From Octopus vulgaris (taxonomy: Eukaryota), in contig OX597815.1 of NCBI GenBank assembly GCA_951406725.2, positions 54,994,001-55,058,000 of the forward strand: DNA of 64,000 bases, in the 5' to 3' direction. The position numbers were made by a program, and so were the translations under genes. This document shows, in pieces, positions 9,429-59,529 of this stretch. Numbering within the stretch: position 1 is the first letter of the stretch; every line of letters starts with the position of its first letter. The notes under the pieces were generated by a model. It was not told the DNA's origin. It saw only the letters and a program-made list of their open reading frames with translations, and did not search any database.

Positions 9429-9467
9429 GATTAGCGCTTTCTCCCAATGGAGTGGGCTTTTCAAATC
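9429..9467 (-). ncRNA. Minimal hammerhead-like motif (U3-A8 core)
   Basis: Minus strand: GAU-UUGAAAA-G CCCA cuccau UGGG A-GAA-AGCGCU-A-AUC. Palindromic helix III; the helix II closing pair is mismatched. Confidence 0.55.
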
Positions 9468-10194
9468 AAATCAATTCCTTGTGGGTAATTTGAACAATTT
9501 ATAGTTTCATAGTAGTGGTGGGGAGGAATAAGACAGTATAAAAGGGTGAAGAGGAAGTGAGACAGAGAAAACATGTGTGTGTGTGTGTGTATGTGTGTGT
9601 GTGTGCATTTGTATCTGATAGGGAAGAAGAAGTATTGTTATTCCGTTGGCCTACTGGACCTCCTGTGGTTTTCTAAGAATTTTGGCTCTGCTCTCTGTCC
9701 AGTCTCGTGTCACTGAGTGTGTGTTGTGCGTAGGCTGGCCGGACAAATGTCATTTGGGGTCACACTTTCTATGATCGTTTTGTGGAGGTGTGTGTGTGTG
9801 TGTGTGTGTCCGTGTGTGTTTTTGTGTGCGTGTGTGTGTGTGTGTCTCTGTGTGTTTGGAGAAGGAGAGAGAGAAAGAAAGAGAAAAGGGAAAATAAAAA
9901 TAAAAATAAATATAAAAATAAAAAATAATTAAAAATATAAAAAATAAAAAATAAAAAAATAATAAATAAAATATAAAAAAGTATAAAAAAATAAATGAAA
10001 ATAAGGGAGGAAGTGGAGGAGAAAAAAAATATTTTTGTGTGTTGATATTTATACCAATACATATATATATATATATATACACACACAGACTTATACATAA
10101 AATATTGGAAAAAAACCTTTTTATCGGTTCAAAATGAATAACCAAATTACACCATCTTGAAAATTGTATATCATAGGAAAGTTAAAATTAAAAA

Positions 10195-10794
10195 TATATT
10201 TATATATATATATATATATATATATATATATATATATATATATATATATATATATATATATATATATATATATATATATATATATATATATATATATACA
10301 TATTTATATATATATATACATATTATATATATATATATATATATATATATATATATATATATATATATATATATATATATATATATATATATATATATAT
10401 ATATATATATATATATATATATATATATATTTATATATATATATATATACATATTATATATATATATATATATATATATATATATATATATATACATATT
10501 TATATATATATATATATATATTTATATATATATATACATATTTATATATATATATATATACATATTTATATATATATATACATATTTATATATATATATA
10601 TACATATTTATATATATATATATACATATTTATATATATATATATATATATATATATATATATATATATATATATATATTTATATATATATATATATATA
10701 TATATATACATATATATATATATATATATACATATTTTATATATATATATATATATATACATATTTATATATATATATATATATATATATATAT
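10195..10794. repeat. (TA)n microsatellite
   Basis: Direct observation. Confidence 0.99.
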
Positions 10795-13209
10795 GTGAAA
10801 GTGACACCGACACTACTCTCGGATCACAACATGGTAGAGCTGACCATGTACGGGCCAAAAGAGAGCACGGACATGCAGCCTACAAGAAACCCTCAGAATC
10901 TTTCCAGCTTGAACTTCAATAAGGCAAACTGGAAACAAATTGAGAAAGAGATCCTCAAACAAAACTGGCCTGAATGTCTCTCCTCGCCGGACATCGACAT
11001 GATACTTCAACAATTCATGTCTGTAATGCAAGCCATATGCTACAAATGTGTCCCAGAGAGAAAGGCCACTGTACACAAGAACAAAATCCCCAGAGAGAGG
11101 AAAATTTTAATGAGACGGCGTACAAAAATTTCAAATCGCCTAAACAAACAAATTGAAAGTAGTGAAAAGTCCCGCCTGAAAATAAAACTGTTGGAAATTG
11201 AAAATTGTCTGCAACTTTCCCATGAGAAGGAAAGAGCAGACAAAGAAGCCTGGGCTATAGACAACATAAAAACTAACCCCAGAGCTTTCTACAGGTATGC
11301 CAAAGAAACGGCTACAGTGCACTGTAGGATAGGGCCACTCCTTGAAAAGGATGGCACACTCACAGGAAAACCAATGAGGGTAAGTGAAATACTGAATGAA
11401 CAATTCAAGAGTGTTTTCACTCCACCCCTTGGGCATTTCCAAATCAGCAATCCAACTGACTTCTTTACCACTGCAGATATAGAATCAGAGGCGGCGACGA
11501 TAAGTTACATCGAGATAAAGGAAGACGATGTAATAAAGGCTATAGATGAAATGAAAATAGACTCAGCTACTGGCCCCGATGGATTCCCGGCAATCCTCCT
11601 AAAAGTATGTAAGAGAGTCTTAGCAAGACCACTGCAGTCCCTCTTTCAGAGCTTCCTTGCAGCTGGCAAACTTCCAAGGGGACTGAAGGAAGGTAAAATA
11701 TGCCCTATTCATAAAGGAGGTAGCAGAGCGGAGGCAAAGAACTACAGACCTATCTCTCTGACCTCACACATCAGCAAGGTCATGGAACGAATAGTCAGAA
11801 GGAAACTAATCACCTTCCTTGAAGAAAATGACTTGCTGCCTGACACCCAACATGGTTTCCGACCAGGAAGAAGCTGCTTAACTCAGCTCCTGCAGCACTA
11901 TGACTGGGTGCTGAAACAACTGCTCAACCACTCAAATGTGGAAGTCATATATCTCGACTTCGCAAAGGCCTTCGATAAAGTCGATCACGGAATGATATGT
12001 CACAGGTTGCGTGATCTTGGCATAGTTGGAAAACTAGGAGAATGGCTTCACGACTTTCTGAAGAATAGAAGTCAGGTGGTAGTAGCCAATGGGGCCACTT
12101 CCATTAACACGCAAATAATGAGTGGTGTTCCACAGGGCACTGTTTTGGGACCACTACTGTTCATAATGGCCCTCTCAGACATGCCCTCAGCCACGCAGAG
12201 ATCCACGATCACAAGTTATGCAGATGATACAAAAGTTTCACAGGCAATACAGAACCCTGAGGACACTAAAAACCTGCAATGTGAGCTGGACGAAATATAC
12301 AAGTGGGCTGAAAAGAATAGCATGCAGTTCAATGCTGGAAAGTTTCAAGCTTTATACTATCAGCATGCAAAACTGAATGCAATACCCAATGAATACACTG
12401 GACCCGGAGGGATTGCAATCCCAGAGGCACAATCAGTGCGTGACCTGGGTATTCACATGAGTGATGACGCGACCTTTCATGTACATGTTGCTAAACTGAC
12501 AGTGAAATGTAGACGGCTGGCTGGCTGGATTCTTAGAACCTTTAGAACAAGAGAACAAGAAACCATGATGGTCCTCTGGAAGACACTTGTCCTAAGCCAC
12601 TTTGACTATTGCTCTCAGCTATGGTCACCATCCAGTGTCAAGTTGATCACAGAACTTGAGGCGATCCAACGAAGCTACACAAAGAAGATAGCCTCTATGC
12701 AGAATGTAAGCTACTGGGAAAGACTCAAGAGATTAAAATTATACTCCCTGGAGCGTAGGCGGGAAAGATATGCCATAATATACATCTGGAAGATCCTGGA
12801 GGGAAGTGTCCTGAACTTTGGCATCGAGAGTTACACAAATGCCAGAACTGGGCGCCACTGCGTGGTGCCTAGGACTCCAAACCTGCCATCAAGATGTAGG
12901 ACAAGATTCTGTGATAGCCTGGGCTTCCGAGGCCCACAGCTCTTCAATATCCTCCCGAAGAACCTGAGAGACCTGCATGGGGTGGATACAGATGTCTTTA
13001 AAATGAAGCTGGATCTCTTCCTGTCTGGTGTCCCAGATGAACCAACTTCACGGCAGGAGGGGCAGATGAGGGCAGCTGCATCGAACTCTCTCATGCACCA
13101 AATAGCAGTTGCTAGAAAGCCCCCATGAAGTAAAACCAAGTAGCAACACCAAATGGCGGTGCCCCAGCATGGCCACAGCTCATAGGCTGGAACTGGAATC
13201 AATCAATCA
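10795..13209 (+). mobile_element. 5'-truncated CR1/L2-group LINE (family A) with open 777-codon RT frame
   Basis: [26 protein letters not shown] and YADD motifs; short 3' UTR and (AATC)n tail; (TA)n on both sides. Confidence 0.93.
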
Positions 13210-13448
13210 TATATATATATATATATATATATATATATATATATATATATATATATATATATATATATATATATATATATATATATATATATATATATAT
13301 ATATATATATATATATATATATATATATATATATATAATATATATATATATTTATATATGATATATATATATATATATATATATATTTGTAAAAAATGAA
13401 GTTCGAAAATGCTGCTGTATTATACAATTTTTAATTTTTATATATACA

Positions 13449-13491
13449 TTATAACATGTTTCAGTTCCTGAAATGAACCTTATCAAAAAAA
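13449..13491 (-). ncRNA. Hammerhead-like motif at 3' end of Penelope 1
   Basis: Minus strand: UUGAUAA-GGUUC auuucag GAACU-GAA-ACAUGU-U; helix I is weak. Confidence 0.55.
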
Positions 13492-57730: not shown

Positions 57731-57755
57731 ATGTATATATATATGTATGTATATA

Positions 57756-58186
57756 TTTGTTTATTTCCGTAAACCTGCCTTCGTCTTTTGTCTATTTTCA
57801 TAAAGCTTCCCGTTATATATTACGCGCTCACGTGGTCTCACTTTCATCCTATATTCTACCAACACCACTATCAACTCTTACCTATACTTACCATTGGCTG
57901 CACCTCTCTTTCACGGATCAAAGTGACTTTGTTATTGATGTGAAATCCTTAAAAAATATACCACGACGTCTATACATTTCTAACCTTGAACTCTCAACCT
58001 TGTTTTTTCTCTGTGTATCTTTCTGTTGAAGAGCGTAGGCTCGAAACGTTAAAGACTTGTTTTATTTATATTTCCTGAGCGCCATACTAATACAATTGTT
58101 TGTTTGTATTCCACCTGCCTTCGTCTTTTGTTTATTTCCGTAAACCTGCCTTCGTCTTTTGTCTATTTTCATAAAGCTTCCCGTTA
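57756..58186 (+). mobile_element. Non-coding ~430-bp insert with ~60-bp direct terminal repeats
   Basis: tttgtttatttccgtaaacctgcc...cttcccgtta at 57756 and 58127; TA-flanked; hammerhead-like motif inside. Confidence 0.65.
58018..58055 (+). ncRNA. Minimal hammerhead-like motif
   Basis: UCUUU-CUGUUGA-A-GAGC guag GCUC-GAA-ACGU-U-AAAGA; A6 is replaced by U. Confidence 0.62.
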
Positions 58187-59416
58187 TATATATATATATA
58201 TATATATGTATGTATATATATATATATATGTATGTATATATATATATGTATGTATATATATATATATATATATATATATATATGTATGTATATATATATA
58301 TATATATATATATATATATGTATATATATATATATGTATGTATATATATATATATATATATATATATATATGTATATATATATATATATGTATATATATA
58401 TATGTATATATATATATATATATATATGTATATATATATATATATATATGTATGTGTATATATATATATATATGTATATATATATATATGTATGTATATA
58501 TATATGTATATGTATATATATATATGTATGTATATATATGTATATGTATATGTATATATATATATGTATATGTATGTATATATATATATGTATGTATATA
58601 TATATATGTATATGTATGTATATATATATATGTATATGTATGTATATATATATATGTATATGTATGTATATATATATATGTATATGTATGTATATATATA
58701 TATGTATATGTATGTATATATATATATGTATATGTATGTATATATATATATGTATATGTATGTATATATATATATATGTATATGTATGTATATATGTATA
58801 TGTATGTATATATATATATATATGTATGTATATATATATATGTATATGTATGTATATATATATATATGTATATGTATGTATATATATATATGTATATGTA
58901 TGTATATATATATATATATATATATATGTATGTATATATATATATATGTATGTATATATATATATATGTATGTATATATATATATATATGTATGTATATA
59001 TATATGTATATGTATGTATATATATATGTATATGTATGTATATATATATATGTATGTATATATATATATGTATATGTATGTATATATATATGTATATGTA
59101 TGTATATATATATGTATATGTATGTATATATGTATGTATATATGTATATGTATGTATATATATATGTATATGTATGTATATATATGTATATGTATATATA
59201 TATATGTATGTATATATATATATATATATATATATGTGTATGTATGTGTGTATATATATATATATGTATGTGTGTATATATATATATATATATGTATGTG
59301 TATATATATATATATATATATATATATGTATGTGTATATATATATATATATATGTGTATGTGTATATATATATATATGTATATGTATGTATATATATATA
59401 TATATATGTATGTATA
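58187..59416. repeat. (TA)n/(TATG)n microsatellite
   Basis: Direct observation. Confidence 0.98.
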
Positions 59417-59489
59417 TAAAAAAAGGAAATGAAGAAAATGCTGACAAAATAATTTAAGTAAGGGAGAGTGTATTTAATTAGGTGAAAGT

Positions 59490-59529
59490 TCTTTTTACCG
59501 GTTGCACATTTGTTATGCTTATCAAAAGA
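59490..59529 (-). ncRNA. Hammerhead-like motif in non-coding insert 59417-60056
   Basis: Minus strand: UCUU-UUGAUAA-GCAU aacaa AUGU-GCA-ACCGGU-A-AAAAGA; A13 is replaced by C. Confidence 0.45.

Follow-up and report, generated by a model that had tools for sequence, protein, structure and literature searches.

We analyzed a 64,000-nucleotide stretch of Octopus vulgaris DNA (contig OX597815.1, positions 54,994,001 to 55,058,000), which we refer to as the window. It is animal-like DNA at 35% GC. Alternating purine-pyrimidine tracts, mostly (TA)n, make up about 11.7 kb of it and lie between pieces of retroelements; fragments of reverse transcriptase (RT) of the long interspersed nuclear element (LINE) type are the majority of the inserts. 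The window also holds nine small motifs that resemble hammerhead ribozymes, and three Penelope-like elements (PLEs), which we call A, B, and C. In all three elements, a motif (13486, 42184 with its inverted copy 48179, and 55126) lies in the sense orientation downstream of an open reading frame (ORF) for RT and a GIY-YIG endonuclease. We named each motif by position 3 of its core: 9464-, 13486-, 25467-, 32241+, 42184-, 48179+, 55126-, 58023+, and 59525-. The features are listed below; the E values are rough and come from the covariance models R1 and R2, which are described later.

9429..9467, - strand: hammerhead-like motif 9464; UUGAAAA core, AGCGCU palindrome, G.A at 10.1/11.1; parent element unplaced; E = 0.037
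13446..13493, - strand: motif 13486 of element A; UUGAUAA core, ACAUGU palindrome, weak helix I; E = 0.014
13387..17357, - strand: PLE A; RT and GIY-YIG ORF at 14361-16706 (781 amino acids between stops); Cys linker present
25431..25474, - strand: motif 25467, the most decayed; UCGAAAA core, ACCAGU, GCATTTTC end motif; E = 2, not significant
32237..32271, + strand: motif 32241; C3-G8 core CCGAUGA (U4C), bulged A, ACGU palindrome; E = 0.04
42148..42188, - strand: motif 42184 of element B; UUGACAA core, U.U at 10.1/11.1, ACCGGU palindrome; E = 3e-5
42064..46400, - strand: PLE B; frameshifted RT and GIY-YIG ORF at 44322-46249; the 3' region is long and has degenerate microsatellites as well as a 44-bp array
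46400..48256, + strand: inverted 3' end of B (99.6% over 681 bp), with a second copy of the motif (48179) at 48175-48215; E = 3e-5
55091..55132, - strand: motif 55126 of element C, the best formed; UUGAAAA core, 4-bp G-C helix II, ACGCGU palindrome, C17, 6-bp helix I; E = 0.0055
54920..57377, - strand: PLE C; frameshifted, GC-rich RT and GIY-YIG ORF, broken off within the endonuclease
58018..58055, + strand: motif 58023; C3-G8 core CUGUUGA (A6U), bulged A, ACGU palindrome; same family as 32241; E = 0.0035
59489..59532, - strand: motif 59525, decayed; UUGAUAA core, A13C, ACCGGU palindrome, GCATTTTC end motif; E = 0.055

The motif set

An initial annotation of the window had reported nine motifs, and all of them were found at its places and strands; they represent eight loci, however, since 48179 is part of the inverted copy of B's 3' end. 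The annotation had also described one common layout. The type I order (helix I strand, YUGANRA, helix II, GAAA...UH, helix I strand) is indeed present in all nine, but the details vary. The core is intact in 55126, 13486, 42184/48179, and 9464, while 25467 and 32241 (both U4C), 58023 (A6U), and 59525 (A13C, so that GCA replaces GAA) each have a single core change. The palindrome (4 or 6 nt) is perfect in eight motifs and imperfect in 25467, and the contiguous helix I is merely 1-2 bp in 13486, 25467, and 59525. Positions 10.1/11.1 are G-C in 55126, G.A in 9464, and G-C with an extra base between 9 and 10.1 in 32241 and 58023; in the lineage of A and B (see below), they are G.U, A-U, U.U, and G.U.

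All nine motifs have a Watson-Crick pair at positions 3 and 8. Seven have U3-A8, as had been annotated, and none has an intact CUGANGA. Because of these two counts (in 64 kb), standard searches would miss these PLE ends, just as the initial annotation had said of a CUGANGA search. Among 150 of the 474 Rfam matches (E ≤ 10) that were listed, there were no hammerhead families; most of those listed were matches of microsatellites to miRNA models.

Could the motifs be chance matches, loosely picked from AT-rich DNA? At 35% GC, words such as TTGANAA and GAAA are frequent, the middle and relaxed versions of our motif descriptor were fitted post hoc to the motifs in the window, and no single level caught all nine. 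However, when we compared the window to 300 block-wise local dinucleotide shuffles of itself, the strict descriptor had 3 matches versus 0.007 in the shuffles, the middle descriptor had 7 versus 0.18, and the relaxed descriptor had 8 versus 0.31. At no level was the observed count reached in any of the 300 shuffles.

To avoid circularity, we also built covariance models from PLE loci outside the window alone. The outside set comprises 87 loci that encode relatives of element A (80 retained from 373 in metagenome contigs, plus 7 in genome contigs). The two models, R1 and R2, were built from aligned motifs, 13 of which have palindromes of six bases and 18 of which have palindromes of four. In an unfiltered search of the window, the top seven matches of R1 were the seven U3-A8 motifs, and the top two matches of R2 were 58023 and 32241. 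Together, the models recovered eight of the nine motifs at E ≤ 0.06 (all except 25467), and no unlisted site in the window scored below E = 2. The orientation and position of the motifs are also fixed relative to the ORFs and the TA tracts. For the eight motifs, the shuffles and the outside-built models refute a chance origin; as an explanation of the whole set, chance is barely credible.

Insert ends and PLE lineages

The initial annotation had placed each motif about 45-175 nt from the edge of an insert. For eight of the nine motifs this agrees with what we found: the predicted cut site is followed by a (TA)n tract at a distance of 45-177 nt (for instance, the predicted cut of 13486 is after 13453, 66 nt ahead of the tract, and that of 55126 is after 55097). 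For 9464, the 3' end of the insert is hidden behind a gap of Ns (9222-9321), 110 nt from the cut site. About 14% of the unmasked positions in the window are less than 180 nt from such an edge.

A second signal, GCATTTTC, occurs five times in the window (13412, 25406, 42127, 48236, and 59441), always downstream of a motif of the A/B type. In four A/B-type ends that otherwise cannot be aligned, it lies about 20-25 nt ahead of the end of the element, and it may be a start signal for reverse transcription or a protein-binding signal.

Among the three elements with ORFs, A has the clearest domains: it matches the profiles for RVT_1 (E = 1.2e-6; 28.8 bits, which is slightly below the cut-off of 29.6) and GIY-YIG (E = 3.1e-6), while the matches for B and C are weaker and fragmented. 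Of 8000 candidates that were scored, 811 are relatives of element A at E ≤ 1e-30; in a search of viral contigs, 181 sequences matched the pattern and none were confirmed as relatives. Ahead of the GIY-YIG domain, C647, C652, and C655 are invariant across 31 aligned proteins, and the same pattern is legible in B and C. According to Craig et al. 2021 (PMC8557442), this Cys linker (CX2-5CxxC) is a mark of the Neptune and Nematis clades. By their ORFs and linkers, A, B, and C appear to be endonuclease-bearing PLEs of the Neptune/Nematis type; the trees that we built comprised unnamed loci alone. Other traits described there fit as well: RT with a C-terminal GIY-YIG domain, pseudo-long terminal repeats (pLTRs), microsatellite targets, inverted 5'-truncated copies, and tails at one side. 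In particular, the inverted 3' copy of B and the 43 additional nt at just one end of B (42064-42106), which are tail-like, match those structures.

The 3' region of A ahead of the motif is pLTR-like and promoter-like, with TGACGT/CCAAT repeats and TATAAAA; an upstream pLTR is absent. In C, the ORF is followed by a 71-bp segment, 291 nt that include the motif, the 71 bp again, and (TA)n. Outside the window, relatives of A have a motif of this layout at the corresponding place. One of these relatives (L086) shares both the core and the palindrome with 13486, and another (L001) has the motif both upstream and downstream of its ORF, as expected if the motif lies in a pLTR.

The other five motifs (9464, 25467, 32241, 58023, and 59525) are in stubs that lack ORFs, and we infer that they belong to PLEs as well. 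The stubs may be nonautonomous dependants, as the initial annotation proposed, or copies of PLEs that were truncated at the 5' end. The stub with 25467 is short, ends at about 25380 in a few TA units, and adjoins a decayed LINE-like RT. Motif 32241 is in a 203-nt stub flanked by TA tracts (32172-32374), 58023 is in a stub with a 58-bp terminal repeat (57756-58184), and 59525 is in a segment that resembles a solo pLTR (59419-60055). The decayed LINE-like RT is itself flanked by a 187-bp inverted pair (92%; 23164-23350 versus 25483-25658), which ends about 15 nt short of motif 25467.

Although the nine motifs had been annotated as one family, they belong to at least three lineages (A/B, C, and 32241/58023), with 9464 unplaced. 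On a tree of RT sequences, A and B are sisters (support 100/98) and C is distant, which upholds the annotation's view that several PLE lineages are involved. Motifs 13486, 42184/48179, 25467, and 59525 share U11.1 and have GCATTTTC close to the end of the insert, and we assign 25467 and 59525 to the A/B lineage by inference. Motifs 32241 and 58023 align to each other; their C3-G8 cores have one change each, presumably from CUGAUGA. A single family was rejected because these lineages have no BLAST similarity to each other and because C is far from A and B on the RT tree.

Several other features of these elements deserve mention. Six copies of TGACGT/ACGTCA, which resemble cyclic AMP response elements, form an array upstream of the hammerhead of element A (13859-14174, - strand), and there are such arrays in L001, L002, L004, L006, L081, and L082. 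Within 300 nt upstream of the motif, these words occur 32 times in 12 loci with six-base palindromes, versus 1.0 expected from mononucleotide shuffles, and 8 of the 12 loci have at least one; in 18 loci with four-base palindromes, there is 1 versus 1.9 expected. The arrays may represent a promoter signature that is conserved in this clade of PLEs. We found no report of TGACGT in Neptune promoters in the literature by title, abstract, or term counts. At its other end, A has an Asn/His/Pro-rich frame of 253 amino acids with a 138-bp duplication (16625-17386, - strand), which overlaps the start of the RT ORF and has no match in Pfam; it may be a frameshifted N-terminal extension or an upstream ORF. 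The 3' region of B contains an array of 5.1 copies of 44 bp (42202-42430), along with degenerate CA/TA microsatellite that spans about 1.3 kb (42787-44084). The microsatellite is duplicated in the inverted arm, so it traveled with the element. Some of the outside PLE contigs and proteins (L081-L087, P0030, P0039, P0061, and P0076) are assigned to genome bins of bacteria (Campylobacteraceae, SUP05, Bacteroidota, and clam symbionts), most likely due to contamination from animal hosts.

Covariation between positions 3 and 8

The initial annotation had argued that the change from C3-G8 to U3-A8 is compensatory. To count the states at these positions, we considered 90 loci (the 87 outside loci and A, B, and C), allowed all four combinations, and required a sense motif near the ORF. 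The 39 loci that have a motif (3 of them from the window) include 29 with C-G, 10 with U-A (3 from the window), and none with a mismatch, which supports the argument.

We then placed the states on the RT tree, using the 37 motif-bearing rows with sufficient RT sequence (2 of the 39 were dropped). The tree requires 8 changes of state, 7 of which are forced by well-supported branches, and a single origin was seen in none of 200 bootstrap trees. Thus, the swap between C-G and U-A recurs. This recurrent switching supports continued selection on the catalytic core, and it bears on whether the hammerheads of PLEs need to cut. In two alignments (A4 and A5), the count of paired cells and the covariation score were also above all 500 shuffles; the rows of these alignments were picked by a descriptor that includes pairing, and we treat only the 3-8 count as free of circularity.

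Positions 10.1/11.1 are unpaired in 7 of the 13 outside relatives with six-base palindromes. Pairing there thus varies by lineage, and the odd base of helix II in A and B appears to be a trait of the lineage, not decay.

Cleavage, terminal repeats, and earlier reports

What might the motifs do? Very probably, they are minimal type I hammerheads in the 3' ends (likely the pLTRs) of several PLE lineages that insert at (TA)n, and they likely cleave themselves as double hammerheads in active source elements that are arranged in tandem, with most copies in the window likely inert. If reverse transcription starts shortly downstream of the motif, as the literature suggests, then every insertion would retain the last stretch, which bears the motif. 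The motif would mark the ends of inserts because even heavily 5'-truncated copies keep this stretch. In a tandem source element, two motifs would pair via the palindrome, which would complete helix III; the paired motifs would cut after H17, and the tandem precursor RNA would thereby be trimmed. In PMC6765202, promoters in pLTRs are described as driving the next tandem copy, and in PMC11167929, reverse transcription begins internally at set sites, which gives an optional tail.

The folding energies, which omit tertiary contacts in the core, single out 55126. For a dimer of this motif, the double hammerhead is the predicted minimum, with 26 of 26 pairs formed and -34.7 kcal/mol versus 2 x -14.3 kcal/mol for the monomers. 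It is also the only copy that combines an intact core with two helices of at least 4 bp each and a helix II that has G-C at its base.

Contigs from four public runs, none of which is on record as RNA and which carry no information on RNA ends, were aligned to 54920-58184. Two of the contigs cover 55091-55132, and each has a single difference, at 55161, that is carried by the whole depth (among the 40 of 163 variants that were listed, which extend to 57586). Since this difference is outside the motif, the U3-A8 motif of C is common to other copies. Hundreds of contigs match 58019-58058 (motif 58023) alone and have unlike flanks; because the matches stop at its edges, the motif is the conserved part.

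Several observations weigh against self-cleavage or against the breadth of this explanation. For the other eight copies, the double-hammerhead fold is 4.3-20.6 kcal/mol above the minimum for the dimer. None of the copies has a partner motif on the same strand within the window, which is why we consider them to be probably inert, and their self-cleavage is a prediction. R1 scores 25467 (E = 2) level with the background. No motif was found for 51 of the 90 loci, many of which are short contigs or belong to distant clades. There were 4 matches in the antisense control, all C-G, and same-strand inverted copies were observed among the loci. Finally, in PMC11167929, catalytic mutations in the hammerhead of a lizard PLE are reported not to have affected its insertion in vitro, and none of the RNA-seq reads began or ended at the cut site. 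Given these results, the role of cleavage in PLEs is itself uncertain.

Accordingly, one might propose that the U3-A8 motifs of A and B are no longer catalytic and that the palindrome and the core are retained as a signal, for RNA dimerization or protein binding, near the start of reverse transcription. In 13486, 25467, 42184, and 59525, the contiguous helix I is 1-4 bp and 10.1/11.1 is never G-C. Moreover, cleavage was dispensable for insertion of the lizard PLE in vitro, and Cervera and De la Pena 2014 (PMC4209133) describe the cleavage of minimal hammerheads as weak even when they are dimers, which also counts against a needed role for cutting. However, the 3-8 pair, which is a contact within the catalytic core, is retained in all 39 motif-bearing loci; the lack of pairing at 10.1/11.1 is common in C3-G8 relatives too; and U10.1.U11.1 is a natural variant that is described in Perreault et al. 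2011 (PMC3088659). We consider a purely noncatalytic role unlikely.

A different proposal arises from the terminal repeats. Two units in the window are terminally redundant: an exact 71-bp repeat (54920-54990 and 55282-55352) surrounds 55126 with a period of 362 nt, and an exact 58-bp repeat (57756-57813 and 58127-58184) surrounds 58023 with a period of 371 nt. Each pair has one hammerhead inside, and the ORF of C runs, broken, straight into the first 71-bp copy. These units might be nonautonomous, retrozyme-like elements that arose from small circular RNAs that were cut by the hammerhead and rejoined. Consistent with this, contig depth is far greater in the bins with the motifs than in the ORF of C (as summed contig depth, which does not give copy number), and animal retrozymes have been argued to derive from the pLTRs of PLEs (bioRxiv 10.64898/2026.07.22.740005). 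Like the non-LTR retrozymes of animals described there, the units are short and noncoding, have a type I hammerhead, and are related to the pLTRs of PLEs. Those retrozymes form tandem arrays with a hammerhead in each unit, whereas each insert in the window has one motif and at most about 1.2 periods, and neither unit forms a tandem array. Also, among the 15 of 47 joints that were listed, none leads back by 362 or 371 nt. A remnant, TATATAT, after the first 58-bp copy fits two successive insertions, and template jumps between 3' ends would account for the rest. Retrozyme-like circles are thus an improbable source of these units. Between C and the stub with 58023, there is a separate repeat (57318-57753) with very deep contig coverage.

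A bolder combination of these ideas is that the A/B lineage has a distinct working subtype of hammerhead (U3-A8, a wobble or U.U at U11.1, a six-base palindrome, a very short helix I, and GCAUUUUC as an end signal) whose cleavage occurs solely in trans or requires help from a PLE protein; that the 362- and 371-nt units are retrozyme-like circles mobilized by these PLEs; and that the 3-8 pair was swapped at least 7 times across PLEs with no surviving mismatched intermediate. We doubt that all of this holds. If it did, the swaps would be a natural series for studying compensatory evolution in a catalytic core.

Returning to minimal hammerheads at the ends of PLEs, the U3-A8 form that the initial annotation had described is not new: it is already in print. 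PMC4209133 reports minimal hammerheads in the pLTRs of PLEs, including a U3-A8 variant with about 1,300 matches in Schistosoma mansoni (Cercyon elements), and UUGAUAA and UUGAAAA cores in Fig. S3. Natural U3-A8 covariation was described even earlier, along with U10.1.U11.1, in PMC3088659. There, both are treated as rare core variants of hammerheads in general, while here both variants are in minimal motifs of PLEs, and they occur jointly in 42184/48179. PMC6765202, a review that cites Lunse, Weinberg, and Breaker 2016/17, describes small type I hammerheads that are linked to PLEs, have a short palindromic stem III, and cleave as dimers. By the review's description, these resemble the window motifs, and the 2016/17 work may already include these exact variants.

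In most respects, the motifs in the window match the minimal hammerheads of PMC4209133: they have the type I layout, palindromic positions 15-16, placement in a 3' pLTR, and UUGAAAA and UUGAUAA cores, and they are mostly single dispersed copies with occasional pairs on opposite strands. They differ in their host and in their PLE lineages, which have the Cys linker and are of the putative Neptune/Nematis type. Also, the described motifs typically have a G10.1-C11.1 pair that an additional base separates from position 9, while the A/B lineage has U11.1 instead, mostly lacks the extra base, and has a 6-nt palindrome and short helices. A term search of the supplement of PMC4209133 found no entry for "Octopus," and we found no report of these motifs from octopus or other cephalopods by title, abstract, or term counts. 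Overall, the copies in the window are new members, from further PLE lineages, of a known class of hammerhead. What they add to it is modest: the swap at 3-8 recurs, and the U11.1 form is specific to a lineage.

PLEs are not the only retroelements that lie between TA tracts in the window: so do two families of LINEs (10798-13207, and 36694-41275 plus copies). One of these families has a 1043-amino-acid frame with endonuclease and RT, and an upstream frame with a weak match to CCCH.

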